DNA from: a virus
Lineage: Duplodnaviria > Caudoviricetes
Strand: one strand, 5' to 3'
Length of the DNA stretch: 64,000 nucleotides
IMG/VR virus record: IMGVR_UViG_3300044711_000095
Location: 18,540 to 82,539 of that record
The number at the start of each line of letters is the position of its first letter. The stretch's first letter is position 1. A program made the position numbers and the translations under genes. A model generated the notes under the pieces. It was not told the origin of the DNA, ran no database searches, and saw only the letters and a list, made by a program, of their open reading frames with translations. Below, piece by piece: positions 8,178 through 60,345 of this stretch.

Positions 8178-8223
8178 ACCACGCGGGCCGACCCCGGTCC
8201 GTGAACGAAACCCAACCAACTGA

Positions 8224-8319: not shown

Positions 8320-8340
8320 CGACAACGACGGCTGCACAAG

Positions 8341-8390: not shown

Positions 8391-8435
8391 GGGTCACCCG
8401 TTCGGGGCATCCTTCGCGTCGTCGCTCGTCGAGCC

Positions 8436-8464
8436 TTGCAACGTCACCGTCAAGGTGACATGCT
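8436..8464 (+). promoter_or_regulatory. Sigma70-type promoter with overlapping operator
   Basis: TTGCAA-N17-CATGCT; GTCACC-N5-GGTGAC palindrome at 8443-8459. Confidence 0.55.
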
Positions 8465-8535
8465 GGTGTGACAGGCCGCCCCGACCCACCAGAGCAGCCA
8501 CCACGCCCCCCACCGCCAACCCTAGGAGCCCACCC

Positions 8536-9252: not shown

Positions 9253-9255
9253 CAC

Positions 9256-9474
9256 ATGGCAGACACCCCCCCACGACTCACCAACCCTGAAGCAGCCGCC
9301 TACGCGGGCAAGACGCCCGCCGCCTGGAAACAAGCCAGGGTCCGCCGCCCATGCCCCCCTGACGGGCACTTCGGCCGCACCCCCTACTGGCACCCGTCCA
9401 CCATCGACCGGTGGCTGTCCCAGGCCCCACACCCGGGCCGCCACCACCCACCAACCACGAGGACCACACCTTGA
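9256..9474 (+). CDS. AlpA/excisionase-like HTH protein
   Basis: LTNPEAAAYAG...PPDGHFGRTPYWHPSTIDRWL. Confidence 0.7.
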   Translation: MADTPPRLTNPEAAAYAGKTPAAWKQARVRRPCPPDGHFGRTPYWHPSTIDRWLSQAPHPGRHHPPTTRTTP

Positions 9475-11748: not shown

Positions 11749-11815
11749 TGGGCTGCCGACACGCCCACACAAGCAGTAGTAGCGCAAGCGCCAGTCGAGA
11801 GGGTAGGGTACTGCC

Positions 11816-12010
11816 ATGACCGAACGACCGACCGGGCGCATCCAGCTCACCGGCCTCACCGACGATGAGGAGCAGGTCATCCGGGACGCAGCGAGGTGGA
11901 GCCGGAAGACCATCAAGGACTACGTCATCGACCAGTCCAGGGCGACCATGCGCGAGGCCCAGGAATCCATCCTGAAGGCTGCGGGAGGCACCCATCGACC
12001 CGCATGCTGA
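11816..12010 (+). CDS. Ribbon-helix-helix (DUF1778-like) regulator, leaderless
   Basis: RIQL..LTDDEEQVIRDAARWSRKTIKDYVI; TAGGGT 6 nt before ATG. Confidence 0.7.
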   Translation: MTERPTGRIQLTGLTDDEEQVIRDAARWSRKTIKDYVIDQSRATMREAQESILKAAGGTHRPAC

Positions 12011-12222
12011 CCAGGTTCGGAGCTACCAAAACGACTACCGGGTGACCTGGATCTCGACGGGGGTCTAGGCCAGGTCACCCGGTGCGATACGTCCACTCCA
12101 GTGAGGGAGTAGCAACATGGCATCAAGCTTGGGGACCTGCGGTCAAGTCCCCGGCGCGACCGGCTCCGGGTCGAGCCCCTCGCCCAAATGGGCATGGTGA
12201 CCCGCGCGTGGGCCGCGGAGTC

Positions 12223-13302: not shown

Positions 13303-13745
13303 ACGAACTCGACGAAGCCGACGTCTTGCGCATCCTCGCCAGGGTCAAGAGCTTCCACGGCCCGCAGGACGTCGGGGACACCGTCGTCGCGTCCTGGCTG
13401 CTCGCCCTGCAGCGAGCCGGTGTCCACAACGTGGACGACGCCGACGCTGCGGTGGTCGACCACTACTCCGATACGTCGGCGAACCCCTGGATCACTCCTG
13501 GCGATGTGATCGCCCGGTACCGCACGATCCGCGCCGCGCGGCTCAAGAACATCGACTACGGCGACGTCACTCAGGACGTGGACGCGAACGACGCCGATGC
13601 TTACCTCGCGACGATCCGGCACCGGTACGCCGCCATCGCGGACGGCGCGACCCTCGCCCAAGCGAACGCCCTCCCCCTGCCGCCCGCCGCCGCGCACGCC
13701 GCGATCGGAACGGCCGCACGTCGGCAGATCGGGAGGGCGCAGTGA
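13299..13745 (+). CDS. Helicase loader/inhibitor-like protein
   Basis: Between rep and dnaB; VASWLLAL..DADAAVVDHY..WITPGDV. Confidence 0.55.
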   Translation: MNELDEADVLRILARVKSFHGPQDVGDTVVASWLLALQRAGVHNVDDADAAVVDHYSDTSANPWITPGDVIARYRTIRAARLKNIDYGDVTQDVDANDADAYLATIRHRYAAIADGATLAQANALPLPPAAAHAAIGTAARRQIGRAQ

Positions 13746-15085
13746 CCGCCGTAGAGGATCTCGCCGTGCCCGACGCCGGCCTCGGGTCGCTGCCCGCGGA
13801 CCCGGACACCGAGCGGGCCCTTCTCGGTGCGTGCCTGGAGAGCCCCGCCGCGGTCGCGGACGCGGTCGAGGCCGGTGTGACCGCGGCGGACTTCTACAGC
13901 CCGGGGCACGCCGCGGTGTGGGAATCCGTGTGCCGGGTCCCGGTCCCGGGGGTCGTGGAGGTCCGCGCGGACATGGACGCGCACGGGACGCTCCGGGCGC
14001 TGCCGAACCCCGCGTACCTGGTGACGTTGGGCCGGTATGCGGTGGCGGCGTCGGCCGGGTTCTACGCCCGCCGGGTGATGGGTTTCGCGGCCCGGCGCCG
14101 GGCGATCACCGCCGGGCAGCGGATCATGCAGGCGGGGTGGCGGCTCAGCGACCCGTCGGAGGTGCAGGCGGAGGCCGAGGATGCCGTCGCCCGGATCTCC
14201 GCCCCGGTGGACACCTCCACATGGTCACCGCTCGGCGAGATCGCCGGCGATGTGTGGGCCGAGTACCAGGCGACGAAGAACCGCGGGTACGTCGAGGGAA
14301 TCCGTTGGGGGTACATCGACATCGACCGGGTCATGAACCCGCTGCAGCCCGGCGACCTGGCCGTGGTGGTGGCGTGGGCTGGGGGCGGGAAGTCGGTGGT
14401 CGCGTCGAACTTGGCGTTGGACGCGTCGATCGTTCAGGGCAAGCGGTCCCTGGTCCACGCCTTGGAGATGACGCGGCGGCAGTTGGGGCAGCGCTGGGCC
14501 GCGAAGACCGGCGGGCTGTGCCTCTCGAAAATCCTGGACGGGACTCTGTCGGAGGACGAGGAGTGTCGGTTCTGGGAGGCGCTCGCGGAGATGGAGGAGG
14601 CTCCGCTGATCGTGGACGAGGTCGGGTCGCTTTCGCTGTCGCGGTTGCGGGCGTCGATCCGCCGGCACAAGCCGGAGATCGTGATCGTCGACCAGATCCC
14701 GATCATGGAGGTGGATGATCCGGCGGGCCGGGCGTCTCGTGAGCAGGCCCTGACGAGACTGTCCTACGGGCTGAAGGAACTCGCGAAGGCCGAGGGCATC
14801 CCGATCGTCGCGTGTGCCCAGTTGAATTCCGCACCGCTGAACCGGGCCGAGAAGCTCCCCACCTTGGAGGACATCCGCGAGTCACGGGGCATCGGGCAGG
14901 CCGCGACCATCGCGGTGTTCCTGTGGGACCCGTGCAAGGTCCAACCGGAGAGCCCACGCGCCGGGGAGATCGATTGGATCATCCGGAAGCAACGGCAGGG
15001 CCGCAGCGACTTGATCATCCCGATGGCGCAGCAGTTCCACTACTCCCGCCTGTACGACCTCGGCCGCGACCCGGAAGAAGCGTGA
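13742..15085 (+). CDS. dnaB: Replicative DNA helicase
   Basis: PADPDTERALLGACL N-terminus; AWAGGGKS Walker A; ALEM; IVDQI; QLN; DIRESRGIGQAA; KQRQG. Confidence 0.93.
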   Translation: MTAVEDLAVPDAGLGSLPADPDTERALLGACLESPAAVADAVEAGVTAADFYSPGHAAVWESVCRVPVPGVVEVRADMDAHGTLRALPNPAYLVTLGRYAVAASAGFYARRVMGFAARRRAITAGQRIMQAGWRLSDPSEVQAEAEDAVARISAPVDTSTWSPLGEIAGDVWAEYQATKNRGYVEGIRWGYIDIDRVMNPLQPGDLAVVVAWAGGGKSVVASNLALDASIVQGKRSLVHALEMTRRQLGQRWAAKTGGLCLSKILDGTLSEDEECRFWEALAEMEEAPLIVDEVGSLSLSRLRASIRRHKPEIVIVDQIPIMEVDDPAGRASREQALTRLSYGLKELAKAEGIPIVACAQLNSAPLNRAEKLPTLEDIRESRGIGQAATIAVFLWDPCKVQPESPRAGEIDWIIRKQRQGRSDLIIPMAQQFHYSRLYDLGRDPEEA

Positions 15086-15086
15086 C

Positions 15087-16471
15087 ATGACTACCTCAAC
15101 CATCGACCTGGACCTGTCCGTCCTGAGGTGCGCCGGATGCCTCGACCCAGTCAGCGAGGATGACTCGGCGCTGGAGGCGTCGTACGCGGACATCAACTCC
15201 GGCCAGCCGTTCGAGTGGCGCGTGTGGCACAGCGACTGCTCCGGCGACGACGGGTACTGCATCGACCTGGCCCGTATCGAGACCCACGCCGAGGCCGCCT
15301 GGTGGACTGACCACCTGTCCGGCAAGGAGTGGTACCCGCGGTCGAACTGGCGGCAGTTGATGGCCGCCCTCAAGTTCGACGCCCGACCGCACGAGGACAT
15401 GTGATGTCCGACCCGCGTGGGATCTTCCAGGACAGCGACGAATACTGGCGGGCCGTGGAGTTCGAGGGCTGGCCTGTGATGGACCTGGACCCGTGGCGTG
15501 TGTCAACCCAACCAACCGAACCGATCATGAACGGAAAGGTCGATCATGAATGAGTCTTCCCGCCAACCGGCGAGCGTGGTAGCGCCCGCCCCGTACGGGA
15601 CGGTCCCCGTCGAGGGTGCCGCGATGCGGATGCTCGCCCACCACGCGGCCCGCGGGTACGCGTTCTGGTTGTCCGTCGCCGACCCGGGGACGTCGCTGCT
15701 GCATCTGGCGACCGCTGAGACGGGGGTGGCGGTGGAGTGGCAGTTGGCCCGCGCCTGGCTCGCGCTGTACGCCGGGTTCGACGCCGACACGGCAGCGGCG
15801 GACATCGCGTACGACTCGACCCGCCCGGAAGAGTTCGGGGACGACTTCCGGCTGTTCTGCATGCCGGCTGGCGTGGACCCGGACCGGATCGCCCCCGCGT
15901 TCCCCGGGTCGCAGGTGACGGCGTGACCGGCGACCCGCAGATCGACGTGGCGTCCTGGAACGCCGTGGCCCGCGAGTGCGCGGACCTGCGGGACCAGCTC
16001 GCCCAGACCGTGGAGGAGTTGACTGCTGCCCGGGAGGACGCCGCACACCAGTTCACGCAGAGGTGCGTTGAGACGGTCCGCGCTGAGGACGCCGCGGTGG
16101 TGGTCCGGACCGCCCGGAACTTGATCGACGGCGGCACCGGCCCGGGCCACACGAACCGGCGGTGGGAACTCTCGGACGCCATCGAAGCGTACGACTCCCG
16201 GTCGCTGCTGGTCGACGCCGACCTGGACGGTGCTGGGATGCGGCAGCTCGCCGCTGTCCTGCTCGCCCACGCGGCCCGACTGGACGCCGTGCCCGCACCC
16301 GCAGACCTGGACGTCGATGAGAGGCGCGCGGCGATCCTGGCGGCTGGCAGCGACGCGCTCACGGCCGCCCACCGCGAGCTGCGGGCCGCCGGGGTGGCAC
16401 CGGTGGACCCCCCGGGCGGGCTGGGCGCCGAGACGGGCGCACAAGGCCAGCTAGAGGGTGATGCGCGGTGA
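15087..16471 (+). CDS. Four hypotheticals (15087-15404, 15404-15553, 15546-15926, 15923-16471)
   Basis: Coupled ORFs with SD sequences. Confidence 0.6.
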
Positions 16472-16869
16472 CCGGCCGTCAGTGGTTCGTCCGCAACCCG
16501 GACGCCCCGCCCCGCGAGGTCTGGTCGTACGCGAACCAGGGCACGGGCCTGACCCGCCACGGGAAGTGCAGCCTCGTGTGGTGGCAGTCCGGGAACTACA
16601 CCAGTCACTGCGCCGGATGTTGCCGGACGTTCACGTCGCTCGCCGGGTTCGACGCCCACCAGGAGTTGGACACGACTGGCCGGGTGGTCTGCCACGACCC
16701 GGCCGGGATCGTCGACGACCAGGGCCGCCTCCGGTTCGGTTTCGAACGGGGCCACCACTACGGGGAAACGGCCCCCGGATACTGGACGGCGCTCCCGGCG
16801 TCCACCCGGACCCTCCCCGGACCGGGAATCCGCGTGTGGACGACGGATGAGGGGGTGTTTCCCGAGTGA
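16468..16869 (+). CDS. Phage FDXHR zinc-binding protein
   Basis: HCAGCCRTFTSLAGFDAHQ...CHDPA. Confidence 0.8.
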   Translation: MTGRQWFVRNPDAPPREVWSYANQGTGLTRHGKCSLVWWQSGNYTSHCAGCCRTFTSLAGFDAHQELDTTGRVVCHDPAGIVDDQGRLRFGFERGHHYGETAPGYWTALPASTRTLPGPGIRVWTTDEGVFPE

Positions 16870-17081
16870 CTCTCCCCACCCCGAACGGCCGGAAGGTTCT
16901 CGCGGCCGTCGCAGCAGCTACCGCCCGGGACGGGTACCCGTCGATCGCTGCGGTCGCGGAACTGTCCGGCCTGTCCGCCAGGGTGATCCCCGCGCACCTG
17001 TTCCTGCTGCAGACGTCGGGGCACCTGGAGGCCGCCGAGGGTGGCCTGCGGGTCACGGAACCGCTGCGGGTGGTGAAGTGA
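16866..17081 (+). CDS. LexA-like winged-helix DNA-binding protein
   Basis: GRKVLAAV..RDGYPSIAAVAELSGLS..AHLFLLQTSGHL. Confidence 0.65.
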   Translation: MTLPTPNGRKVLAAVAAATARDGYPSIAAVAELSGLSARVIPAHLFLLQTSGHLEAAEGGLRVTEPLRVVK

Positions 17082-30710: not shown

Positions 30711-31859
30711 GTGGCGACACGCGCCTCCGACATCGAGAAACTCCTCCGCCACGCCGAAACCCAAGGCTGGCGGATAGAGGCCAGGAAGAAATGCTTCATC
30801 GCGTTCCCACCACTCGATGCACCCGACCCGAAACCCGTGTCCATACCAAAATCACCGAACGGAATCAGGATGATCCAGAACGTGACCTCTGCGTTACGGC
30901 GCGGAGGATTCAACCCCGACACCGACCGCCACGAAGCCGTAACTACCGCCATCGAGTCCGGCCACCGCGACATCGTCCCCTCCAGCCGAACCAACCCCCC
31001 GCCCACCCGTGAGCAGGTCGAAGTGAGACTGAACGGTGCACCCCTCGTAGCGAACGGCCGGCCCGTCAACGGCGCCCACAAGGCACCCGTGACCGTCATC
31101 ACCAGGGAACCCGTCCCCGGCAGGCCCGGTATCGAACAGGTCCTCCTGTCCGACGGCGCGGAAGTGTTCGGGTGCGCGATCTGCCCAGACCTGCGGGCCC
31201 GCACCGCCAGCGAAGCAGCCAACCACCACCACCACAACCACACCATGAACCGCGGGAGGGACGGCGAACCGGCACCCGCCGGGACCCTGATCGCCGCCAT
31301 CCTCCGCGACGAAATCGTCACCGGTAGCGGCGGTTGGACGTACGGGCAGAACATGCCCACGGGCCGGGACCTCGCCGCCCGGTTCGGGGTGTCCGGGTTC
31401 ACCATCTCTCAAGCGTTCAAACCGTTGATCGCCGAAGGGCTGGTCTCCACCCAGGCTGGCCATCGTGCGGTCGTCACCTACAAGCCCGCCCCCGCCCTCG
31501 CCGTGACCCCGGAGCCCACCATGCCGACGCCACCCACACCTGCCCTGCTCGCCGGGTCCGTCCGCCCGGTCACGGCACCCGCCAAGCCCACCCCACCAGC
31601 CCGACCCGCAGCGACCGCACCGGACCCGCAGGCCGAGATCCTGAAGGTGATCGGGCAGTTGCGGGACATCGCCGGGCAACTCGACGACGGCGGCGCCTCC
31701 GCAGCCCAGGCCGCGGAACTACGCCGGCAGGTCGCGCAGTCGAACGCGGAACGTGACTCGGCCCTCGCGAAAGCCAACGCCGCCACCACCCGCGCCGACA
31801 AGGCCGAGAAGGAGCTGGAGGCGTTGAAGGGCGCGTTGAAGGTCATCCAGTCGCTGTAG
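30711..31859 (+). CDS. Multidomain protein: HicA-like N-terminus, Zn finger, GntR winged helix, coiled coil
   Basis: LLRHAETQGWRIE..VSIPKSP; FGCAIC..HHHH; ILRDEIVTG..MPTGRDLAARFGVS..ISQAFKPLIAEGLV. Confidence 0.7.
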   Translation: MATRASDIEKLLRHAETQGWRIEARKKCFIAFPPLDAPDPKPVSIPKSPNGIRMIQNVTSALRRGGFNPDTDRHEAVTTAIESGHRDIVPSSRTNPPPTREQVEVRLNGAPLVANGRPVNGAHKAPVTVITREPVPGRPGIEQVLLSDGAEVFGCAICPDLRARTASEAANHHHHNHTMNRGRDGEPAPAGTLIAAILRDEIVTGSGGWTYGQNMPTGRDLAARFGVSGFTISQAFKPLIAEGLVSTQAGHRAVVTYKPAPALAVTPEPTMPTPPTPALLAGSVRPVTAPAKPTPPARPAATAPDPQAEILKVIGQLRDIAGQLDDGGASAAQAAELRRQVAQSNAERDSALAKANAATTRADKAEKELEALKGALKVIQSL

Positions 31860-32075: not shown

Positions 32076-32576
32076 GTGGCATGGACGAAGACCTCCGATG
32101 ACTTCCCCGACGACTGCTGGACTCTCTCGGACGCCGCGTACCGGCTCCACCACGAGGGCCTGACCTGGTCGAACCGGAAGCTCCTCGACTGCCTGATCCC
32201 CAAGGACGACCTCCGCAGGTTCGCCAAGTGCCCCGATGCTGTTGGTGAGCTGCTGGCCTGCGGGTACTGGTCGGAGGAGGGCGACGCATACGCGATCCGC
32301 CACCACGCCGCCTACCAGCGCTCACGCGAGCAGGTTGTCGCGCTGCAGGAGCGCAACCAGCGGAACGGCAAGGCGGGCGGTCGTCCGAAGAAGCCGGGCC
32401 GCGAGATCTGGACTCCCGAAACCCAACTGGGTTCCCAGATGGAAACCCAGGGGGTCAGGACAGGTCAAGGACAGGCTCTGGAAGAAGAGGTCCATGGGTT
32501 GAACGAGAACTTGGCGTGTTCGTGGTGTCGCGGCGAGGGTTGTCCGCAGTGCCGTCCTGACATGTTCGGCGGGTAG
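32076..32576 (+). CDS. Replication-initiator N-terminal-like protein
   Basis: MAWTKTSDDF..AAYRLH..LDCLIP..LLACGYW..NGKAGGRP pattern of actinophage Rep N-termini. Confidence 0.55.
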   Translation: MAWTKTSDDFPDDCWTLSDAAYRLHHEGLTWSNRKLLDCLIPKDDLRRFAKCPDAVGELLACGYWSEEGDAYAIRHHAAYQRSREQVVALQERNQRNGKAGGRPKKPGREIWTPETQLGSQMETQGVRTGQGQALEEEVHGLNENLACSWCRGEGCPQCRPDMFGG

Positions 32577-32902: not shown

Positions 32903-33238
32903 TCAGGCGTGTCCGGCGGCTATGTGGGTGTCGAGGCGCATACGGAGCACGGAGTTCTCGGCCCTCAGCTCCGCGACCTCGGATCGCAGGCCGATGACTT
33001 CGCTCTGGAGTCTGACGATCTGGATGGCCAGAGGGGTTTCCCGTTTCCGGGTCGAGTCCCGGAGATCCCTGAACGCCTCGACGTCCCTCCGGCGGTACTT
33101 GCGGCGGCCCTTGCGGTGGTCACCGCCTCCGGTCCGTTCGGCGGGTTCGATCGGAAGCCTGGGGACGGTGGTCCGGTCGACCCCGAGTAGCTCGGCGACT
33201 TGCTGCACTCCGAGCAGTTCGTTGGGGTCGTTCGGCAC
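32903..33238 (-). CDS. MerR/excisionase-like HTH with coiled coil
   Basis: LLGVQQVAELLGVDRTTV..RKYRRRDVEAF; AGGAGG + GTG. Confidence 0.7.
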   Translation of the reverse strand: MPNDPNELLGVQQVAELLGVDRTTVPRLPIEPAERTGGGDHRKGRRKYRRRDVEAFRDLRDSTRKRETPLAIQIVRLQSEVIGLRSEVAELRAENSVLRMRLDTHIAAGHA

Positions 33239-33413
33239 GTTCCTCCTCCTTGGCGTGTAGGTACCCCCGAGGTCTCGGTACCCGCCGGGCAAGAGTAGGT
33301 GCAGGCCAGGCATGCTCCCCATCATACAGATTGCGGCATAGTTGCGTTAGACCGCGTCTAGAAGCTACGGTGGAGGGGAGCCACCAACTTCCCCCACCGA
33401 ACGGAACCCCCTC

Positions 33414-36284
33414 ATGTCCCTCGCCGAATGGGCCGTCCTGCAGGCCCTGTCCGCCGGTGACGACCGGACCGCCACATCGGCCAGCCCCGTCCGCTGCGAG
33501 GGCTGCGACGGCCGCCGGACCGACGTCCTCACGAACCGGCCGCGCCGTGTCTTCGGCATCCGCATCGGGTGGATCAACGAGGCGTGGTGTACGGCCTGCT
33601 ACCGCCGGGACGTCGAACGGTCCATCCCCCGCCGCACCGAGGTGTGGTGGCTCCCGGGGGGCCACCCGACGACGTGGGGTCCCCTCCTGGAGTCCCTCCC
33701 CGAGGACGGCGTCTCCTGTGCCTGCTGCGCGGGGGTCCGCGGACCCATCGAGTACGCGGTGTGGGAGCCCACCGACGCGCCGGGCGCGGCCGTGGAGTCC
33801 GCGTGGCTGGTCTGCACCCGCGACTTCGACGACGCCCACCGGGACGACGTGTGGCCCGCCGGCACCACAGCCGCGTACATCGGCCGCCAGTACGACGATG
33901 GCGCCATCGAAGCCGCTGACGCCGCGTACGACGACCGGGTGGCCCTGCACTTCGCGAAGGACACGAAATGACCGGCCCCGCCGCCGGGGTCCTGTACGTG
34001 ACCGCAGAAACGGCCCGGCACCTCGCCGCCGTCGAACACGACCTGGCCGTCACGGCCGCCGAACTCGCCGACTACCGGACATCCCTGGATTTGGTCCACG
34101 ACGCGGTCGCTGAGGCGTGGATCGCCCGTTCCCTGCCCGGCACGGACCCGTCGGCCATCCTCGAACGCCTCATCGACAAGATCACCGCCGCTGCCCCGGC
34201 ACCGGCCAACCCGAACCGGAGCGCACCGTGACCGTCCAGACCACCACCTCCGATGCGGCATTCGCTGCCCGTATCCGGGCTCTGCGCGCCGCGCAGTGGT
34301 TCGCCGCCGAGTACGCGGCCCTGAAGTCCGCGGACCTGTCCAGGGTCCGGGCCACGATGACCCGCCCCTGGGCCCGCCACCAGGCGATCAGCTGCCTGGT
34401 CGCGTCCGCCGGGTTCGGGCTGTTCGGGTGGGCGTTCGGGGTGTCCCTGATCTTCCTCGCGATGATCCCGTTGGGTGTCGCGGTCCCGGTCGCCGGGGAC
34501 GTCCTCGCGAAGCGGCACCGGACGGGGGAGCCGTTGACGGGCCGGGTCGTCGCCGACGTCCTGGTCACGTCGATCGCGGTCACCGTCCCCATCATCGCCG
34601 GTGCGGTGATCTTCGCGCTGGTCCTGCAGCGGTTCCTCGGTGGGGGCGCCCCGTGAGCATGTTCATTGCGTTGGCCCAGTCCGCTGGTGACCGGATCGCC
34701 GCCCGCCACCGGCCCCCCGGCCAGGCGGTCACGACCCACGCGGGACCCGCCACCCCGCCCGTGGTCGACGTGCCCCTCGCATGGGTGGAGGCGTTCGAGG
34801 AGGGGATGGCCCGGTACGGGTGGACCCGGTCCACCACCGGCCGGCCCGGCGCCGGCCGGGAGTACCACGACCCTGATCACGTCCTCGCCGCGACAGCCCT
34901 CGTGGTCCTCGCCGACATGGTCCACACCGGGCGGGTCACCGCGGACCAGCTCGCCGGCCTCACCCCACCCCTGTCGACCGCCCAACTGCCCGCACCGGCC
35001 CGACCCGCGCTGGAGGCCCCACAATGACCCGCCCCGACCTGTCGCCCGTCACCGCCGCCCTGGCCCCCATCGTGCCCGTCACCCACGCCGGGTGGGGCCA
35101 CCTGCCGCACCCGAACCCCCAGGTCGAGGCACAGTGCGACCGGCTCCCCGACGACGTGTTCCGCCTCCACACCGGCGACGCCGCCGCCCTGAACCGGCTC
35201 GCCGCAGTCTCCGTCCCGTTCTCGTTCCCCGCCCCCGGTGAGGCGTCCAGCCCCGTCCGTCGGGCCGAGCACTGGACGGACGGGGCGTGGGACGGGTACG
35301 TCACGTTCCACGCCGACCAGGCGGCCGACGTCACCGCGTGGGCGTGGGCGCTACGGCAACTCACGGCCGTCCAACTCGATCAGGTCCTGGTGGGGCTGTC
35401 CGGTGTCCACTTCCGGGACGACATCGCCGTGTTCGTGGAGCGGGTCAAGGGGTTCGCGTGGGGGGTGCCGGCGTGAGCAGGGACGCGACGATGCGGGCCC
35501 GGGTCACCCTGTGGGCCGTCGCGGGGGCCGTCGGGTGGGTGGCGTCCCACGTGACGTTCCCGGCGCCGTGGGGCGCGTTCGACATGGGCGTGTCCGGCCA
35601 CGGCCGCTTGTTCTGGGCCGCGTTCGCGGTGCTGGCTGGGTGGAACCTGGCCCGCCACTACCGCGACCCCGGCCGTCGCCGCGCGACCCCGCCGCCCGCG
35701 GGTCCGACCGTCCAGGTCGTCCCGCCGTCCACCACCACTCAGCCGACCGTCCGGGTGGAGGTGCCCCAGTGAGCGAGGGCACCGAACTGGACGTCGTGGA
35801 CGTCGACGTCGAGGACACCCCCGGAACCGACCTCGCCATCCCTGGGGAGGCCGCCCTGGAGGAGGTCGTCGACGGGGTGATCGAACCGGAGGACACCGAG
35901 CCCGGGGAGATCGTCGTTGACGACATCGGACTGGCGTACCCGGAGCACCAGCCCCGGCAGGCCACGTCGGACGCCGCCGACGCGGCGACCACTGGTGAGG
36001 GATTCTCCGGCGCTGGCTTCAAGTGGACGAAGGACGGCACCGGGAACGGACCCGGCGGGGGCGGCGGAAGGTCGAAGCCGGGCCGGCGCAGGCTGGGGCG
36101 CCGCGGTTCCGGCGGTGGTGGCGGTTCGGGGGGTGGGTTCCATTTCTCCCTGATCGGCGCGATCTTCCCGAACGCCGCCTTGATCAAGACAGGGTCGATT
36201 GCCTCGAACAACGCGTCCGGCAACGCCCCGTCCGTGATCTCCACCGGTCGACCCGCCCGCAAGCCCCGCCCCCGACGGAAGTGA
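33414..36284 (+). CDS. Seven coupled ORFs upstream of traB, including membrane proteins (33414-33971, 33968-34231, 34228-34656, 34653-35027, 35024-35476, 35473-35772, 35769-36284)
   Basis: ATGA/GTGA coupling into traB; TM helices in 34228 and 35473 (Spd-like position). Confidence 0.65.
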
Positions 36285-36294
36285 GGTGCCAGCC

Positions 36295-38496
36295 GTGACG
36301 ACCTTCGATGAGGCCCCCACCACCACGACCAACCCCGGTGTCACGACGGGCGCCGACATCGTCGGTGACGCCACCGACGCGTTGAAGGCCGCCACCGGCC
36401 GTGTCGCGCCCGCCGCTGGCGCTGCCGCGGCCCGGACCAGGGACGCGGGCCGCAAGGCCGCCGAGAGCGCCGGGAAGGCCGCCAGGGGCTCCCTACGGCT
36501 CATGGTGGCCGGCCTGGCCACGGCGTGGCCGGCGTACCTCGACTGGCGGGCCGTCACCGAAGCCGACCCCGACATCGACGCCGCCCGCGCCGCCGGGTCC
36601 TTCGACCGGGTGAAAGATTTCCAGGCGCAGCAGCGCAACGAGGCCCTGCACCGCACCGAGCTGGCCGCCGCCGCCGCCCGCGTCGGTGTCGCGGTCCTGT
36701 TCGGCGGGTGGCTCCTCGCGACCATCGCCCACGTCGCGGCCTGCGCCGCCGCGTTCGCGATCTCCCGGGAGATGAAACCGAACCCGCAGAAGTTCCCCGA
36801 ACCGAAGGCCCGCGCCCAGGTCCGGTTCCGTCACGCCCTGGTCGCCGCCCTCGTTTCCGCGGCCCTGACGTTCGTGGACGCCGCCGTCCTCGGCGTCGGA
36901 TGGGGGGTCCTGCCGTTCACCGCCCACCCGGCGGGGTTCTGCTGGGGCTGGGACCGCGTGTTCCTGGCCTGGCCGGGCGCGGCGCTGGTCCTGGTGCTGT
37001 TGGCGCTCATGAAGATGGCGTGGAACGGGACCGTCGCCGATGACCTGCCGTCCGACCTGGCGCCCGCCGAGGTGGAGAAAGTCGACACCACCGAGAACGT
37101 GATCATCGCCGCGTTGAAGGCGTCCTCGATCAAACTGCCCCCCGACGCCGACCCGGCCATCGTGTCGCCCGGCGTCACCTGGCACGCCGGCGGCACCGTG
37201 TGGCGCTGCCACCTCGACACCGCCAAGGGCGGCCGGGGCCCGTCCGCCGCACCCATCGTCGAACCGAAACCCGCCGAAGACTTCGCTGCCCGCCTCGGCC
37301 TCGGCCCGAAGCGTCTCCACATGCACATCGACCCTGACCTCGGGTCCCGCGTCGAACTGATCGGCGTCATCGGCGACCCGTGGGGTCCCCCGACCAGGTC
37401 CCCGCTGATGGACGTCGACCGGTGGGACCTGTGGCAGGGCGTCCCGTTCGGGATGGACATCATGAAGCAGCGGGTCGACGTTCAGGTCGCGTTCCGTAAC
37501 CGCCTCCACGGCGGCGCACCCGACGCTGGGAAGTCCACCTCCACGTACCCGGTGCAGGCCGCGTTCGTCCTGTCCCCGAACTCCCGGCTGTGGGTCCTGG
37601 ACGGCGGGGAAGTCGACACGAAACCGCTGTACGACCACGGGCTGACCTACCGGTGGTGCAACAACAACCAGGACGACGCCCTCGACATCCTCATGGAGCT
37701 GGACGCGGAGGTGGAGCGCCGGCAGACGATGCTCGGCGAGTACGGGAAGGACCACCCCCGGCTGGGGAAGAAGGTTTCTCTCCAGTTCTTCGCCGATCAC
37801 GGCCTCGGGTTCGACCTGCTGCTGTGGGACGAGATGGCCACGTTCACCAACTCCGGGGACAAGGCCCTCGCCCGGGACATCATGAAAACCGGTACGTCGA
37901 TCTTCCAGCGGTGCCGGAAGGTCGGGATCCACGTCCTGCTGTCCACCCAATCCCCGTCCAGTCTCGCGATCGACACGGACGGCCGGGACGTCATCTCCGA
38001 CCGGTACGCCCTGGCCTGCTCCACCCCCCAAATGTCCGACAAGATCCTCGGGCAGGGGCATGTCGCCGAGGGAACGAACGCCGCGAAACTGACCGTCGGG
38101 GACCGCCTCGGGTACCTGTCGGACTCCTCCGGGGACCGCCTGGTCCGTGCGGACTACCTCACCGACGACGACATGGACATCGTGTACGCCCGCGGGAAAG
38201 CCCTACGGAAGGGCCGCGTGGACACCAGGGCCGGGTCGGTCCCCCCGCTGGTGTCCGCGGCGGTACGTCTGCTGCGGGAGCGGGGCGTCGAGTGGATGCA
38301 CACCGCGGAAGTCGTGGGCCGGCTGCGCGCGGCCGGCCATGACCTGTCGGAGGGTGTGAAGGGGCAGCGGGAGTTGGCTGCCGCCCTGAAGCCGTTCGGT
38401 GCCGCGTCGGTCGAGGTGCGCGCCGATGGGGGCCGCGCCCGGTACCTGCTGGACGACCTGGAGGCCGCCCTCCGCAAGGCTGGTGGCGGACAGTGA
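36295..38496 (+). CDS. traB: TraB-like FtsK/SpoIIIE conjugative DNA translocase
   Basis: N-terminal TMs; HGGAPDAGKST Walker A; LLLWDEMA Walker B; RKVGIHVLLSTQSP; C-terminal winged helix. Confidence 0.88.
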   Translation: MTTFDEAPTTTTNPGVTTGADIVGDATDALKAATGRVAPAAGAAAARTRDAGRKAAESAGKAARGSLRLMVAGLATAWPAYLDWRAVTEADPDIDAARAAGSFDRVKDFQAQQRNEALHRTELAAAAARVGVAVLFGGWLLATIAHVAACAAAFAISREMKPNPQKFPEPKARAQVRFRHALVAALVSAALTFVDAAVLGVGWGVLPFTAHPAGFCWGWDRVFLAWPGAALVLVLLALMKMAWNGTVADDLPSDLAPAEVEKVDTTENVIIAALKASSIKLPPDADPAIVSPGVTWHAGGTVWRCHLDTAKGGRGPSAAPIVEPKPAEDFAARLGLGPKRLHMHIDPDLGSRVELIGVIGDPWGPPTRSPLMDVDRWDLWQGVPFGMDIMKQRVDVQVAFRNRLHGGAPDAGKSTSTYPVQAAFVLSPNSRLWVLDGGEVDTKPLYDHGLTYRWCNNNQDDALDILMELDAEVERRQTMLGEYGKDHPRLGKKVSLQFFADHGLGFDLLLWDEMATFTNSGDKALARDIMKTGTSIFQRCRKVGIHVLLSTQSPSSLAIDTDGRDVISDRYALACSTPQMSDKILGQGHVAEGTNAAKLTVGDRLGYLSDSSGDRLVRADYLTDDDMDIVYARGKALRKGRVDTRAGSVPPLVSAAVRLLRERGVEWMHTAEVVGRLRAAGHDLSEGVKGQRELAAALKPFGAASVEVRADGGRARYLLDDLEAALRKAGGGQ

Positions 38497-38497
38497 C

Positions 38498-38636
38498 GAC
38501 CCCTGCGGTGACTCCTGCCGCGACCCCTGGCCGACCCCTGCGGCATCCCTGCACGTCAGGGGTAACACATGACCCCCGCAGGGGTCCCGCAGGGGTTCGT
38601 GCAGGGGTCCCGCAGGCCAGCCCGAAACAACCCCTG
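38498..38636. repeat. clt-like array of 8-mer repeats (GACCCCTG / CAGGGGTC)
   Basis: GACCCCTG or near copies at 38498, 38510, 38522, 38533, 38544, 38571, 38629; inverted CAGGGGTN at 38557, 38579, 38590, 38602. Confidence 0.75.
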
Positions 38637-38681
38637 TCGTCACCGAATGTGACGCTTGTATCGATACAGGACGGAGCCGAG

Positions 38682-39653
38682 ATGGCGCCCGAGACGACCT
38701 ACCCGGCCGCCCCTGCGGCGCCCACCCACCCACAGCGCGCCGACGCCGCCCGCCTGCGCGACGAAGCCCGCCAGGTCCGCACCGCCAGCTCGGTCCTGCC
38801 CTGGGTGCTGGCCCTCCTCGGCCTCGGGAGCCTCGCCTTCACGATGGTCAACGTCTTCACCCTCGCCGTGAAGCACGGTGTCCCCCGGGAAATCGCGTGG
38901 CTCTTGGACCCGCTGATGTCCATCAGCCTCCTCGCCGTACTCATCGGCGACTCCGTCCTGTCCCGGTTCGGGGTCCGCTCCCCGGCCTGGGCTCAGACCC
39001 TCAAGTACGCCGCCGGCCTCGCCACCCTCGCCATGAACATCTGGCAACCGGTCGCCGACCACGACCGTGCCGGGGTCCTCATCCACGCGTCCGTCCCGGC
39101 CCTACTGGTGCTGCTCGCCGAAGCCACCCCGGCCATCCGGCGTCTGTTCAGCGACCTCGCCGACGACCTTCACCGACGCGCCCTGGCGGCCGAACTGGAT
39201 GCCGACGAGAAGGACGCCGCCAACGCCCGCCGGAAGGCCATCGACGACGCCGCGACGGCCGCCGAGATCGCCCGCCTCGACGCGGAACGGAAGGCCGCTG
39301 AGAAGGTCGCCCGAGCGGCCGACAAGGACACCCCGAGGACCACCTCGACGTCCGCCCCACCGCCCCCGCGACGGACGTCCAAGAAGGACGCCCACGCCCT
39401 GCCACCTGGCCTTACGCCCAACGAAATCGCCGTCTACTCGATCATGCTGGGGCGGGGGCAGATGACCCGGGCGTCCATCTTCACCGACTCCGGGCTGCCC
39501 GAACGGGGCGCCAAGGACGCCCTCGAACGGCTCTGCTCCCGCGGCCTTGTCGCGTCCGTCAGCCGGGGCGTGTACGAGACGTCGGGGCCCGCTGACCCTG
39601 AGCCAGAAATGGACGCCGCCGCGGTCGCCGAGACGGCCGGTGAAGGGTCGTGA
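38682..39653 (+). CDS. DUF2637/Spd-like membrane protein with C-terminal wHTH
   Basis: Four TM helices (AWLLDPL, TLAMNIW, IHASVPALLV) then coiled coil and LTPNEIAVYSIML..ALERLCSRGLV. Confidence 0.75.
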   Translation: MAPETTYPAAPAAPTHPQRADAARLRDEARQVRTASSVLPWVLALLGLGSLAFTMVNVFTLAVKHGVPREIAWLLDPLMSISLLAVLIGDSVLSRFGVRSPAWAQTLKYAAGLATLAMNIWQPVADHDRAGVLIHASVPALLVLLAEATPAIRRLFSDLADDLHRRALAAELDADEKDAANARRKAIDDAATAAEIARLDAERKAAEKVARAADKDTPRTTSTSAPPPPRRTSKKDAHALPPGLTPNEIAVYSIMLGRGQMTRASIFTDSGLPERGAKDALERLCSRGLVASVSRGVYETSGPADPEPEMDAAAVAETAGEGS

Positions 39654-40228
39654 GCGGGTACCGGGGGGCCCTCCTCAACCCGGCGGTGTTCCTCCCGACG
39701 TGGGGCCGGTACGCGGATCGATGGTGGCACCGGGCGTCGTCCTGTCTGGCCACGCTGGAGGGCGCCCACGCCCTGGGGTGGCCGCTGTGGCAGGTCATCT
39801 CCGGGGCGGCGGTCTCGGCGTTCTTCGGCGGGGGGAAGTTCTCACCGGACTGTGACTTGAGGTGGGCAGCGAAGAAGATCGACGCCGCGTTGCCCGACGA
39901 ACGGCTCGGCGGACACGGGCCCCTCGGGCACCATGGGTGGACGCACAGCCCGTGGGTTCCCCTACTCGCCATCGTGGGGATCTACGCCGTCGCGCCGTGG
40001 GCGTGGTTCGCGCTCGCGGGGGCTGCCGCATGGCTCTGGCATGATCTTGGTGATGCTCTGGTCGGCCGTGGCGGGGCGATGATCCCCGCCGGGATACCTC
40101 TCTGGCCCCTGCCGGGCCGGCTAGCGGTCGGGACGTTCAAGTCCGGTGGTTTGACCGGCCGGGTGCTCACGGTCTGCTGCTGGGCATCGATCGGGTGGCA
40201 ACTGTGGTCGTGGAAGGGGGGTGTGTGA
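39650..40228 (+). CDS. YdjM-like membrane metal-dependent hydrolase
   Basis: SPDCD, GHHGWTHS, WHDLGDAL, GIPLWP. Confidence 0.7.
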   Translation: MSGYRGALLNPAVFLPTWGRYADRWWHRASSCLATLEGAHALGWPLWQVISGAAVSAFFGGGKFSPDCDLRWAAKKIDAALPDERLGGHGPLGHHGWTHSPWVPLLAIVGIYAVAPWAWFALAGAAAWLWHDLGDALVGRGGAMIPAGIPLWPLPGRLAVGTFKSGGLTGRVLTVCCWASIGWQLWSWKGGV

Positions 40229-40416
40229 TGGCCGACGGAACCGGTGGCGTCCTCATCGGCGGTGTCCTCGCTGTCCTCGGGGCGCGGTGGGTGTGGAACC
40301 GGGTGATGTTCCCGGTCCGGGTGTGCCCGCCATGTAAGGGCACCGGGGAGATCGTGTCCCCGGACGGGAAGCGGGTCCGGCCGTGCTCGAAGTGCGGGTC
40401 GACGGGCCGGCTGTAG
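40228..40416 (+). CDS. Small membrane-anchored DnaJ-type Zn-finger protein
   Basis: TM then CPPCKGTG...CSKCGSTG. Confidence 0.75.
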   Translation: MADGTGGVLIGGVLAVLGARWVWNRVMFPVRVCPPCKGTGEIVSPDGKRVRPCSKCGSTGRL

Positions 40417-40694: not shown

Positions 40695-43546
40695 TTACGT
40701 GCTGGAGCCGCGGGCCGCGCGGCGCCGGGCCACGTGGATCAGTCGGCGGGCGCGGCCGTTCTTCTGGGCGTCCCAGTCGTTCTGGCTCATCGCTGAGATC
40801 GCCTCGTCCAGCGATGTCGCCAGAGCGTCAGCCAGCTCCTGGTCACTGAGCGCGGACTCGATCTTGACGTACGGGTCTTCCATGATTCGATCTCCCAATC
40901 TCGTCGTTACCGGTCAGCGCCCGAAGTGGGGATTGGTCTTCGCGCCGAATATTCCCATGCAGGGATGCCCCGGGCGGGCACCGCAAGTCCTACAGCGGGC
41001 GGTGCAGGGGGCCGGACAGGGCCATGGCTTTCTCCTTCTGGTTGGTTTCACCTGGTTGGTGACTACTCCGATGCCTTGAAGGCGCCGGCTTCTCTTGACG
41101 CGCAAGCGGCATGAAGGGCCAGCCCAGCCCTACCGGGACACCGGTTTCCCGGCGACGGCGGCAGCGACGGCGGCGCGGGCCTGGGGGATGTCCACGACCA
41201 CGTCCCGGCCGTAGTCGACGGTCGGCGCCCAGTCCGGGATGGGGTGGCTGGAGCACGCCGCCCAGTCCAGCTTGGCCGGGTCAGCGCCGGAGAGGGCGCC
41301 CGCGTACAGGTACCTGGTGACCTGCGGCCCATCCCCGGTGTAGTGGGGTCCGCCGGTCCCACACTGGCAGCACCCCTCGGGGATGCCGGCGTAACGGCGG
41401 TCGCGCCAGGTGGCGAGGATGGTCTTGAGAAGGTGCCGCATGGTGGTCTCCCTGGTAGGTGATGGGCTGGTGTGGATCGGCTCAGTGCCAGTTCAAGCCG
41501 GTGATCAGGTCGGCGACGGCGAGGGACGCATGGACCTGGGCCCGCCGCTCGACGGACGCCACGAGCTGCCACAGGTGGGTCTCGGCTGCGTCGTTCCGGC
41601 CGCCGACCGGCACTTGGTCGATGTACGCACGCAGCCGGTCGGACTCGGCGAGCAGACGCTCGGCCTCGGAGCGGTGGCCGAAGTTCGTCATCGCTGCCCC
41701 ATTCGAGGCCGCGCCTGGTAGACGGATGCCGTCCCGCAGGACTTCCGGCCGCTGTCGGTGTGCACCCATCGGGTGCCGTTGCGCTTGATCACGCCGTGGC
41801 AGTGGGCGCACTGCGCCAGTTGGGCCGGAGCGGTCACCGTCCCGCCTCCTGTCGATACTCGGCCCGGATCGCCCGGGTGCACGCGTCCATCGCCCCGGCC
41901 ACGTCGGGGTGGCCAGCGTTCCGCAGCCGGTCCGCCAGGATCTTCCGGCCCAGGGTGACCTCGCTGTCCCAGGCGCCCGGGTCGGGGGCGACCGCCTGCT
42001 GGGCGAGGGCGGTGCGCAGGTACTCGGTCGGCCGGCGGCGCCCCGGCGGGGCGTCCTCGACGGCGGCGAGGATCTGCGCGTCGGTGGGGGTGTTGGTCGT
42101 GGCGCTCATCGGTCCGTCTCCCCGCCCGTGAGGTCGGCCTGCTCCCACATGCCGGGCAGCTCGGCGGCCTGCGTCGCGTCGTCGACCAGGGCCTGGTGCT
42201 CCCCGACGAGGCGGCGCAGGATCTCCAGCGACCCGAGGGACTCGAAGCCGCCGCCGTCGATGAGCTTCCAGGCCAGCGCCGTGCCGGCGTGGGCCTCGGC
42301 GATCTCCAGCACCTGGTCGACGTCCCAGTTGGCGCGGGCCGTCTCGATGACGACGCCATCGTGTGCGACCTCCCAGGGGCCGCCGTCGTCGTCGCGGGTC
42401 ACGGTGTACGGCATCGGTCAGCTTCCCTGCACTTGGTCGGCGATGGCGGCGCGGATGAAGACGACCGATGACGGGTCCACGACGTCGTACTCCACGTCCG
42501 GCCGGATGGTCTCGGTGTCGCCGCCGTGGAACGCCACGGACCAGGTCTGCGAGTCCAGGTACGGCATCGTGATCCGGAAGATCATCCGGGCTCCGCGGTG
42601 GTCCAGACTGTCCAGCCAGTCGGTGAGCTTCAGATCACGGCCGAACGTCTTGCGGATCCGGGTGTACCACTGTGCGTGCTCGGGCAGCGTGGTCACGTCA
42701 ATGCCGGTCGGCAGCGGGTTGTCGATGTACCCGGCGACCGGCGCCGGCACGATGTACGACTGGCCGGGCGGGCACGTGAATACCACGGCCCCGGCGTCGT
42801 CACGGACCACGTACCGGTCGCCCTCGAACGTGGCCTTCAAGGTCAGATGCTGCACGACGGCGGTGACGGCAGCCTCGACCCGCTCCTGGTGCGGCTCGCG
42901 GTCGGTGCCGGTTCCGGGCCACTGGCATCCGTCGCCGGCGGCGTTGCCGCAGATGGGGCAGGCGACGGTGAGGGCGTCGGGGCTGGTCATGGCGTTCTCC
43001 TGAAGATCGATGCGGCAAGAGGGTTTGTTCGGGCGCCCCGGGCTGGAGTCGATCCGGCGCCATCGCGGCGGGGTCTGGGGCTGGCGGGTCAGGCGGAAGC
43101 GGCCCTGGCCGCTTCGAGCTGCTCGGACGAGTCGAACGTCTCGACCACCTTCCGGCTCCCGTCGTCGGCGACCTCCACGATCTCGACGCGGCAGGTGGCT
43201 GCGCGCCCGCCGTCCACGGCAGACAGCGGACCTCGGGCGTGCAGCCGGGCGTCGTGGATGGACGAGGCGACGATGCTGCCGCGCCGCTCGGTGTCCAGTC
43301 CGGCGTCGAAGGTGTAGAGGGCTCGGTGGGTGGAGCGGGAGCCGCGCTTGGCCATCTGTCGGTCCTCCAGGGGGATGATGCGGAGCCAGCGGGTCAGCCG
43401 ATCGGCGTGATGTTCGGGTACAGCGCGCCGACCTCGCGGCCGTGCGCCATCACGTACCGGCCGAGGGCGATGAGCGCCTCGTTCTCCGTGCCGAACTGGC
43501 CGAGCACCTGCGTGTCCTCGTACTCGCCGATCGTCAACTGGAACAT
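40695..43546 (-). CDS. Leftward run of small hypotheticals (40695-40883, 41130-41441, 41482-41691, 41688-41837, 41834-42109, 42106-42414, 42418-42990, 43089-43355, 43394-43546)
   Basis: SD sequences and coupled starts; Zn-finger motif CPICG..C..H.ER in 42418-42990. Confidence 0.6.
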
Positions 43547-48521: not shown

Positions 48522-49265
48522 TTAACGGGGCTTCCCGTTGCCGTCGTACTCGTAGATCCCGTGGCTCCCGACGAATCCCTCCCACTGGCCACGGTCCACC
48601 AACTCGGCCATGAAATGGGACGGGTGGTGCGCGCCGTGGTCGTGGCGCAGCGTCCACCAGACCGAGAGCGGGTCATCTTCCCCCTCCTCGGCGCAGATGG
48701 CATGGAGCGCGTTGTAGTCGGCCTGTGCCTCTTGCCGGTCCTTCTCGGTCCACTCGCTGACGTCCTTGGGCGGCTTGCGTGGCTTCTTCGGCGCGCGCGG
48801 ACGCAGTTCGCGCCCGGCAGGCAGCCCAGAGTCCGAAGGACCACAGGACGATTCACTGGACGGTTCATCTGACGGTTCGGCGGACGCCTGCGTCCGGGGA
48901 GGGGATGACGCAGGCGTCCTCCCCCGGGGGATGCCTGCGTCCGGGGGTGTTTCGCGGTGCCGGGTGCTGCGGTCGCACGACGCTGGGCAGGCCAGCAGAA
49001 AGTCATACCGGTTGGGCCGTTCGTACGCGGACATCCCGCTGCTGCCGCCGGCCTGGAGGTGGGTTCGGATCTCGCCCATGGCCTCCAACTCGCGGAGCGC
49101 CTTCCGCACGTTCCGCGGGTCTACCGCCGCGTACTTGGCCAAGGTCGCCAGCGAGGGCCACGCCCCGCCGTCACCGTGGTGGTTCGCGATTCCGAGCAGA
49201 ACGAGCTTGGCCGAACCGCGCGCGCGGGAGTGGTGCAGGGCGATGGTCATGGCTTCGATGCTCAC
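48522..49265 (-). CDS. Second Rep-like wHTH (HTH_36-type) protein
   Basis: MSIEAMTIALHHSRARGSAKLVLLGIANH..AWPSLATLAKY..RNVRKALRELE..PNRY; EPSDEPS linker. Confidence 0.8.
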   Translation of the reverse strand: MSIEAMTIALHHSRARGSAKLVLLGIANHHGDGGAWPSLATLAKYAAVDPRNVRKALRELEAMGEIRTHLQAGGSSGMSAYERPNRYDFLLACPASCDRSTRHRETPPDAGIPRGRTPASSPPRTQASAEPSDEPSSESSCGPSDSGLPAGRELRPRAPKKPRKPPKDVSEWTEKDRQEAQADYNALHAICAEEGEDDPLSVWWTLRHDHGAHHPSHFMAELVDRGQWEGFVGSHGIYEYDGNGKPR

Positions 49266-59925: not shown

Positions 59926-60345
59926 TCAGAAGGTGCGGACCCAGTACGTCTCACGGTCGAGGGTCGCGGACGAGTAGTCGGCCTGCAGCTCCTCGGCGGC
60001 GGCGTCCCAGTCGATGCACGTGAACGGCCACCGGGCCTCCGACGGGATCATGTCGAGGTCTTCGGCGAGTTCTTTCGCGTAGTCGGCGAAGTGGTCATCG
60101 TGGATCAGGGTCGGCTCGTTCTCGGCGTACTCGCCGATGCCGTCGAGGCCGTAGCCGAGGTCGCTGGCGAACTCGGTGATGCAGTTGCGCAGCCATGCGG
60201 CGGCGCCGTCGCCGTGCTCGGCGTCGAAGGTTTCGGGGTCGGCGTCCGCTTCGGAGAGCAGGGCGACCAGGTCCCGCATGTCGATCGTGTCGCCGGTGGC
60301 GAACATGGCCGAGAGGCTGAAGGCGGCGGCGGTGGTGTCGGACAT
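59926..60345 (-). CDS. Acidic ArdA-like antirestriction / DNA-mimic protein
   Basis: About 32 D/E versus 6 K/R in 139 aa (hand count); C-terminal F.DYAKELAED..WP..CIDWDAAAEELQADY resembles the ArdA C-terminal domain. Confidence 0.6.
   Translation of the reverse strand: MSDTTAAAFSLSAMFATGDTIDMRDLVALLSEADADPETFDAEHGDGAAAWLRNCITEFASDLGYGLDGIGEYAENEPTLIHDDHFADYAKELAEDLDMIPSEARWPFTCIDWDAAAEELQADYSSATLDRETYWVRTF

Follow-up and report, generated by a model that had tools for sequence, protein, structure and literature searches.

Streptomyces plasmids and integrative and conjugative elements of actinomycetes (AICEs) move double-stranded DNA (dsDNA) between hyphae by the action of TraB alone on the clt locus, with the help of Spd proteins. 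The TraB-clt-Spd transfer region of the plasmids pSVH1 and pSG5 was reportedly described by Reuther in 2006 and by Vogelmann in 2011. To our knowledge, pZL12 is the only experimental precedent for an element that uses both virions and hyphal transfer, and it is said to have been described by Zhong et al. in 2010 (J Bacteriol 192:3747). Here, we analyzed a stretch of 64,000 nt of viral DNA (the window; positions 18540-82539 of the 82,539-bp linear IMG/VR record IMGVR_UViG_3300044711_000095) that carries, at window positions 33414-40416, an operon with a TraB-like pump gene and a clt-like repeat array within the genome of a tailed phage.

The transfer region of pSVH1 and pSG5 was treated by Thoma 2015 (PMC4447253). 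At clt loci, TraB recognises 8-bp repeats (PMC4447253, PMC3583192), and translational coupling is known for spd operons (PMC4447253). According to the passages of two sources that deal with it, pZL12/phiZL12 is a Streptomyces plasmid-phage with a tra locus, and its transfer requires a major tra gene together with two genes next to it (PMC3583192, PMC4487206); the passage on its maintenance reports ParA/ParB (PMC4487206).

The phage locus resembles that of pSVH1 and pSG5 in the membrane-anchored FtsK-fold pump with a C-terminal winged helix (modelled in the phage), in the repeated 8-9-mer with a GACCC core that follows the traB stop codon directly and occurs in both orientations, in the small membrane proteins encoded in a coupled operon, and in the GntR-type gene upstream. 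In contrast, the phage TraB is only about 30% identical to the plasmid proteins, in the motor and C-terminus only, the phage has neither a SpdB2 homologue nor a rolling-circle Rep, its GntR-type protein lacks an effector domain and is not divergently encoded, and the replicon is a tailed phage of approximately 95-100 kb compared to a 12-kb plasmid. The likeness to pZL12, whose relatives are pSLE1 and PhiNon1, is one of description: both are actinomycete elements, of approximately 90 kb in the case of pZL12, that combine virion genes with a Streptomyces-type tra locus. The plasmid state of pZL12 has been demonstrated and ParA/ParB are present, whereas no partition genes were found in the phage described here.

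The AICEs pSAM2, SLP1 and pMEA300 (PMC2440964, PMC3218068) share with the phage a TraB-type pump, a GntR regulator and small Spd-like genes, and NUDIX/Pif-like genes occur in a related contig described below (L005). The phage lacks an integrase, a recognised AICE Rep and an att/tRNA boundary, and it is not an AICE. Cultured phages with an annotated FtsK-like translocase include Mycobacterium phages (Wanda, Baka, Courthouse), Bacillus phages and the Streptomyces phage Frankenweenie, and the likeness consists in a phage-borne FtsK-superfamily ATPase. When pSVH1 TraB was compared with the FtsK-like translocases of Mycobacterium phages of approximately 110 kb (H102-H122), the match was marginal (27% identity, E 1e-5). 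The TraB-like protein of the phage had no match at E<0.1 among 50,697 phage records.

We put at roughly 50% the probability that the block is a working-looking Streptomyces-type dsDNA transfer module which forms part of a tailed phage genome and would serve the capsid-independent spread of phage dsDNA.

A TraB-like dsDNA pump in a translationally coupled operon

Genes were called from the GC content of third codon positions (GC3) together with start and stop geometry. The operon at 33414-40416 (+ strand) contains 11 genes, all of them intact, and seven of the junctions are 4-nt ATGA/GTGA overlaps, so that the translationally coupled operon noted in the preliminary description was confirmed. 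The features of the operon are as follows:

33414-33971, + strand, operon gene 1
33968-34231, + strand, operon gene 2
34228-34656, + strand, operon gene 3, a 142-amino acid (aa) product with three transmembrane (TM) helices predicted from hydropathy
34653-35027, + strand, operon gene 4
35024-35476, + strand, operon gene 5
35491-35772, + strand, operon gene 6
35769-36284, + strand, operon gene 7 (g085), a 171-aa acidic/Gly-rich/basic protein encoded directly upstream of traB
36295-38496, + strand, operon gene 8, TraB-type dsDNA translocase of 733 aa
38498-38620, clt-like array, intergenic, a 9-mer with consensus GACCCCTGC and a period of 11-12 bp
38657-38668, perfect 12-bp palindrome TGTATCGATACA, 14 nt before the next start codon (read from the sequence)
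38682-39653, + strand, operon gene 9 (g087), a 323-aa membrane protein with four predicted N-terminal TM helices
39650-40228, + strand, operon gene 10 (g088), a YdjM-family-like membrane protein (Pfam YdjM, PF04307, E 1.1e-3)
40225-40416, + strand, operon gene 11 (g089), a 63-aa product that combines a hydrophobic segment at the N-terminus with two zinc-ribbon motifs (CxxCxGxG)

In the TraB-like protein, Walker A (GAPDAGKS, residues 406-414) and Walker B (LLLWDE, residues 508-513) are both intact. The N-terminus contains three to four hydrophobic helices, a predicted membrane anchor at residues ~120-240, with Kyte-Doolittle peaks at residues 123-150, 181-199 and 222-240. In a tblastn search, 53 plasmid records were matched, 48 of them from Streptomyces, and the nearest annotated relatives were the TraB proteins of pSVH1 and pSG5 (approximately 30% identity, E ~1e-25). 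BLASTP against pSVH1 TraB gave an E value of 1e-30 over residues 378-685, and phrog_1358 'FtsK/SpoIIIE-like protein' was matched with E 2e-19. An AlphaFold (AF2) model of residues 290-733 had a predicted local distance difference test (pLDDT) score of 92, and its best matches in the PDB were the FtsK motor domains (6T8B, 2IUT, 2IUS; Foldseek E ~7e-14), followed by TcpA and EccC/EssC. Thus, the protein has a motor of the FtsK/SpoIIIE fold with both Walker A and Walker B. The last ~86 residues (~650-730) were modelled as an H-S-H-H-S-S winged helix with pLDDT 95; the Foldseek matches of this domain were all winged-helix DNA binders, weak ones (E 0.05-0.4), and FtsK gamma was absent among them.

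A HMMER search of 1.84 billion representative proteins found 959 relatives, approximately 10 of which were full-length and close (33-53% identity). Every one of these close relatives came from a metagenome assembly, and the contigs that carry them measure up to 67 kb. The closest are P0003, P0010, P0012, P0013 and P0153, on contigs of 59, 60, 67, 36 and 49 kb, respectively. Variants that were 99% identical, with the protein intact, were present on 8.3-kb and 9.9-kb contigs from other assemblies. In pattern-based IMG/VR searches with TraB, TraB alignments, g075, g087, g096 and g137 no relative came up, nor did one in a GTDB genome scan. At the DNA level, the 7-kb block had no match among GenBank phages or PLSDB plasmids.

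The clt-like repeat array

The array begins 2 nt past the TraB stop codon and contains eight copies, five forward and three inverted. The forward copies are GACCCCTGC, GACTCCTGC, GACCCCTGG, GACCCCTGC and CATCCCTGC at positions 38498, 38510, 38522, 38533 and 38544, respectively, and the inverted copies are at 38578, 38589 and 38601. When GACCCCTGC-like sites with no more than one mismatch were counted, 8 of 38 were found in the 112 bp of 38498-38609 and 30 in the remaining ~63.9 kb of the window; the Poisson estimate for the density of the array from those counts was approximately 1e-15. Exact GACCCCTG sites outside the array were found only three times in the window. In the whole 82.5-kb record, an 8-mer reached at least five copies per 300 bp at three loci, namely the array, the iterons at 12.5-12.8 kb and a coding low-complexity run of CCGCCGCC. 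These counts bear out the repeat array that had been noted after traB. A coding origin of the array was rejected, the next gene starting at position 38649 at the least in the gene calls of three assemblies.

As a positive control, the same k-mer script found GACCCGGA five times in pSVH1, starting 16 nt past the traB stop codon, and in a second Streptomyces plasmid (L004) it found GACCTGGA four times after traB. The TraB homologue of contig L005 was likewise followed by repeats of its own, of the GAGACCC type, so that in pSVH1, L004 and L005 each traB is followed by its own repeated 7-8-mer. The GACCC core is common to the pSVH1, L005 and phage arrays. Judged by these comparisons, the phage array, a repeat cluster just after the 3' end of traB, is a putative clt that matches the experimentally defined clt loci in position, copy number, mixed orientation and GACCC core (pSVH1). 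The palindrome TGTATCGATACA downstream of the array is possibly an operator or promoter element.

Small membrane proteins and a related plasmid- or AICE-like contig

Small membrane proteins that are translationally coupled with traB were recognised from hydropathy and from the overlaps. The seven small coupled genes before traB (33414-36284, + strand) are Spd-like by position only, and no Pfam, PHROG or NCBIfam match was found for any of them. After the array, g087 occupies the position that DUF2637/SpdB-like proteins have in plasmids, and its four predicted TM helices are followed first by a charged linker rich in Ala, Asp and Lys and then by a TrmB-type winged helix at the C-terminus (Pfam TrmB E 3e-8). 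The label 'DUF2637-like' given to it in the preliminary description was not borne out, as there was no Pfam DUF2637 match at E≤10. Moreover, BLASTP revealed no similarity of g087 to pSVH1 SpdB2, to a plasmid DUF2637 protein or to the protein at the corresponding position in L005 (m19), and ESM Atlas neighbours with DUF2637 plus a helix-turn-helix (HTH) or SpdB_N plus HTH scored 0.78-0.81 and are sub-threshold leads only. A 99% identical copy of g087 was present on a 9.9-kb contig from another assembly.

For g088, the YdjM score was 18.9 bits, under the 29-bit cut-off, and the earlier label 'YdjM-like' is an indirect one, by way of its L005 counterpart m20, which passes the cut-off (32.1 bits) and is similar to g088 (phmmer E 6.6e-9). 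In g089, the two CxxCxGxG motifs agree with the small Zn-finger protein reported at first, but the Pfam DnaJ_CXXCXGXG match reached only E 0.009.

L005 (Ga0302299_10000944, 1-17007) is a 17-kb metagenomic contig from the Joint Genome Institute (JGI) that carries the TraB relative P0153. The gene order g085-TraB-array-g087-g088-g089 of the phage matches m17-m21 of this contig, with homologues of g085, g088 and g089 present and m19 as the positional analogue of g087. The similarity of g085 to m17, which lies directly upstream of the TraB homologue, had a phmmer E value of 1.6e-11 and may be partly compositional; that of g089 to m21 was E 3.3e-5. Homologues of g092 and g095 are also found near the TraB block of L005, which is surrounded by a divergent GntR gene, two NUDIX genes and genes for a TPR protein, an M20 peptidase and a polynucleotide-kinase-like protein. 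No virion genes were present and no integrase was visible in the 17 kb. This context resembles an AICE or a plasmid, not a phage, and the layout is pSAM2-like (KorSA/Pif-like). Two small genes beyond the phage operon have L005 homologues:

41130-41441, - strand, homologue of L005 m09 (phmmer E 1.4e-21)
42106-42414, - strand, homologue of L005 m28 (phmmer E 1.3e-10)

Because of these two homologues, the plasmid-derived block appears to reach approximately 42.4 kb.

Candidate regulators upstream of the operon

Three genes precede the operon:

31089-31859, + strand, GntR-type HTH regulator (Pfam GntR E 4.8e-9, residues 68-129)
32076-32576, + strand, replication-initiator-like protein of 166 aa with a C-terminal Cys cluster
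32903-33238, - strand, HTH_17 (excisionase/MerR-like) DNA-binding protein (Pfam HTH_17 E 3.6e-5)

The GntR-type protein is a candidate TraR/KorA-like controller, and its similarity to pSVH1 TraR was confined to the HTH (E 0.005). The HTH_17 protein matched phrog_66 'excisionase and transcriptional regulator' (E 4e-7) and, being encoded divergently from the tra operon, is a candidate regulator of that operon. The 166-aa protein matched phrog_2447 'replication initiation protein' (E 4.7e-13), but only over its N-terminal ~110 residues. With regard to the absence of an integrase, a Rep and att sites that was stated at the outset, no integrase or att-like repeats were indeed found, but the short initiator-like, GntR and Xis/MerR-like HTH genes upstream had been left unlisted.

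The record is a contractile-tailed phage

The record is a real contractile-tailed phage, uncultured, of a high-GC actinomycete host, with a GC content of 67-74% over its whole length. On the left, the 18.5 kb outside the window encode a tail sheath, a tape measure protein, baseplate proteins and endolysins. The sheath is approximately 30% identical to the sheaths of Gordonia, Arthrobacter and Brevibacterium myophages. It had no relative among the plasmid records, and therefore the phage is not close kin of any plasmid-prophage in that collection. The first 11 kb of the record are matched at 97-99% identity by a 22-kb IMG/VR contig from another sample (L007), which reaches 8.3 kb further upstream. 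The head genes in this extension are those for a head maturation protease, a scaffold, a major head protein, a head-tail adaptor and a head-closure protein; an HNH endonuclease gene (L007 3682-4410) has been inserted after the gene for the major head protein and before that for the adaptor. A tailocin or other contractile injection system was ruled out because in L007 the head genes form one contiguous stretch with the sheath gene. Neither a terminase nor a portal gene was recovered from the record or from L007. The virion genes by which the phage-plasmid class is recognised were thus found in the wider genome, as the preliminary description required (sheath, tape measure, baseplate and endolysin on the record, head genes on L007).

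The two arms of the window are made up as follows:

Left arm, Ro60/TROVE, RecT-like and Gam-like genes; an initiator with iterons in its own open reading frame (ORF), then DnaB; helicase, methyltransferase and DnaN
Right arm, O-like initiator, several PHROG families, a phage zinc-finger domain and an ArdA-like gene

These PHROG-type replication and phage genes confirm that phage genes lie on both sides of the block. The Ro60/TROVE-like gene (1759-3369, - strand) is full-length (Pfam TROVE E 1e-14, phrog_850 E 4e-44); in the whole window, Rfam at gathering thresholds detected neither a Y RNA nor any other known RNA family. An acidic protein encoded close to the right end of the record (59926-60345, - strand) matched phrog_25535 (E 2e-20), and a weak match was to an anti-restriction PHROG (E 5e-5).

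The block did not prove to be a separate insert. No tRNA genes and no direct repeats of at least 16 nt flanking the block were found. The tetranucleotide distance of the block from the record was 0.0128 compared to 0.008-0.014 for other 7-kb windows, and there was no compositional break, although the GC content of the block was slightly raised (0.715 compared to 0.67-0.70). A separately integrated AICE was rejected in view of the missing integrase, att repeat and tRNA gene; as for an AICE Rep, none was recognised, and only the HTH_17 protein and the short initiator-like gene were present.

Replication and lifestyle genes

In addition to the short gene upstream of the operon, two other initiator-like genes are present on the record, both with internal repeats, which brings the number to three:

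12082-13302, initiator-like ORF of 406 aa, weak matches to phrog_1408 and phrog_3992, just upstream of DnaB
48522-49265, - strand, second initiator, O-like (phrog_8540 E 3e-29)

The coding sequence of the first contains approximately 12 copies of AACCGTCCGG/CCGGACGGTT as inverted pairs (12500-12830). These iterons are the strongest repeat locus in the record, and the locus looks like a lambda-O-style origin inside a gene. In the O-like initiator gene, palindromic repeats of GACGCAGGCGTCC are found at 48879-48946. Given these three initiator-like genes, the phage may have a plasmid-like carrier state. At 4118-5210 there is a divergent gene pair that includes an XRE-type HTH gene (4944-5090; PF01381, 28.8 bits), possibly a candidate lysis/lysogeny switch in an integrase-less phage.

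Proposed mechanism

If the block works as a transfer module, the operon would be transcribed from the 175-bp divergent region at 33239-33413, with the divergently encoded HTH_17 protein, the GntR-type protein from upstream, or both as its probable regulators. TraB would enter the membrane via its N-terminal helices and form an FtsK-like ring, and its C-terminal winged helices would attach to the eight GACCCCTGC-like sites that lie just past the stop codon of its gene. The motor would then drive circular or replicating dsDNA of the phage through septal cross-walls or into an adjacent hypha. Four small membrane proteins from the operon may act as helpers in the role of Spd proteins, namely the one with three TM helices, the one with four TM helices plus a winged helix, the YdjM-like one and the one with the Zn ribbon. 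The outcome would be capsid-independent spread, either between mycelia (conjugation) or within one mycelium (spreading). Transfer would be aimed at the phage's own DNA because the docking array is on the phage genome directly behind the pump gene. What the analysis shows is the homology, fold and intact motifs of the pump, the array and where it lies, the gene order in common with a plasmid- or AICE-like locus, and that the record is a phage; in this model we infer DNA binding and transfer, as well as the timing of operon expression and the survival of the donor.

Points against transfer and alternative explanations

Several findings weigh against a working transfer module. The curated models failed for the pump: NCBIfam plasmid_TraB (NF041214) gave 26 bits compared to a cut-off of 800, and Pfam FtsK_SpoIIIE (PF01580) did not match even at E≤10. 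Because of these failures the TraB-like protein is assigned to a divergent subfamily, known only from metagenomes. No Spd protein was recognisable by sequence in the block. The GntR-type protein lacks a UTRA/FCD effector domain, and its gene is not divergently placed relative to the operon. No independent contig confirmed either junction of the block, and the record is linear, metagenome-assembled and approximately 83% complete according to CheckV. ParA/ParB were searched for and not found, and no tyrosine or serine recombinase (PF00589, PF07508) was present in the whole 82.5 kb, and therefore a stable donor state is not evident. A strictly lytic phage would kill the donor, and a stable circular donor form is assumed only. 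Of the preliminary description, the intact TraB-type FtsK ATPase holds with regard to motifs, FtsK fold and homology to pSVH1 and pSG5 but not with regard to the curated models, and 'complete TraB-clt-Spd module' was an overstatement, given that no Spd protein was recognised and the curated models failed. Its inference of spread both as a virion and by hyphal conjugation finds partial support, and neither a lack of virion genes nor a separate inserted element came to light to refute it.

It is unlikely, in our judgement, that the block is passive or selfish cargo, that is, an integrase-less plasmid or AICE fragment captured by recombination, useless or hitch-hiking and maybe decaying. Seven genes in 35.7-42.4 kb have homologues in the non-phage contig L005, the slightly higher GC content of the block would fit such an origin, a truncated-looking initiator gene and an Xis-like gene adjoin the block, and the lack of a GenBank phage with a relative of the TraB-like protein points the same way. 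On the other hand, the 11 genes are intact and translationally coupled, the TraB-like protein has kept its motifs and shows 99% conservation across three assemblies, and the tetranucleotide composition stays within the range of the genome with no boundaries. Origin from an assembly chimera, or from a host region with a prophage beside a separate conjugative element, is highly improbable; such an origin would accord with a linear metagenome assembly whose junctions no independent contig spans, but host-type genes are lacking, replication and phage genes of PHROG type lie on both sides, the composition is homogeneous, and neither an integrase nor att repeats are present. Nothing points to a chimera.

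The pump may also have a task other than transfer to another mycelium. We know of no plasmid TraB system that acts in segregation alone, and for this reason, and with the lysogenic state of this phage unproven, we think it distinctly unlikely that the module is a segregation device of an extrachromosomal prophage, in which a pump-plus-centromere would replace ParA/ParB and act across septa or into spores with no transfer to other mycelia. Consistent with such a device, there is no ParA/ParB or integrase, yet the record has the XRE-type switch-like region and the three initiator-like genes; pumps of the FtsK family clear DNA through septa, and TraB has been implicated in spreading inside the mycelium (PMC4447253). 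Further jobs for the pump would be to exclude superinfection, to form part of an addiction or abortive system of the kil/kor type, or to mobilise chromosomal DNA of the host instead of phage DNA, and we rate these together as quite improbable. Unregulated traB is toxic in plasmids, as in the kil-kor system (PMC4447253), and FtsK-like translocases of unknown role are found in cultured Mycobacterium phages (Wanda, Baka, Courthouse; ~110 kb) and Bacillus phages. Against these jobs, the docking array is on phage DNA right after traB, the layout expected for self-transfer, and the exact GACCCCTG sites outside it are few.

Implications for phages of mycelial actinomycetes

The idea of a transfer module on a phage is not new in kind, as the plasmid-phage pZL12 with its tra locus precedes it. 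If the module works, one element would have two horizontal routes, virions and hyphal dsDNA transfer, and since its parts are listed cleanly, from an intact pump and its predicted 9-bp recognition site to the partner proteins, the question is open to direct test. A wider proposal, that tailed phages of mycelial actinomycetes routinely carry TraB-clt as a 'movement' apparatus that pumps naked dsDNA to neighbouring compartments or hyphae, is tentative and on the doubtful side. If true, a single adsorption could seed a whole mycelium, with or without later virions. It would also provide a bacterial counterpart to the cell-to-cell movement of viruses and a true conjugative phage, which according to a 2025 review has not been found so far (PMC12282955).

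The finding is also relevant to the ways in which phages deal with hosts that are multicellular and compartmentalised. Because chromosomal DNA is mobilised by TraB systems, phage-borne copies of TraB could widen gene flow among antibiotic-producing actinomycetes.

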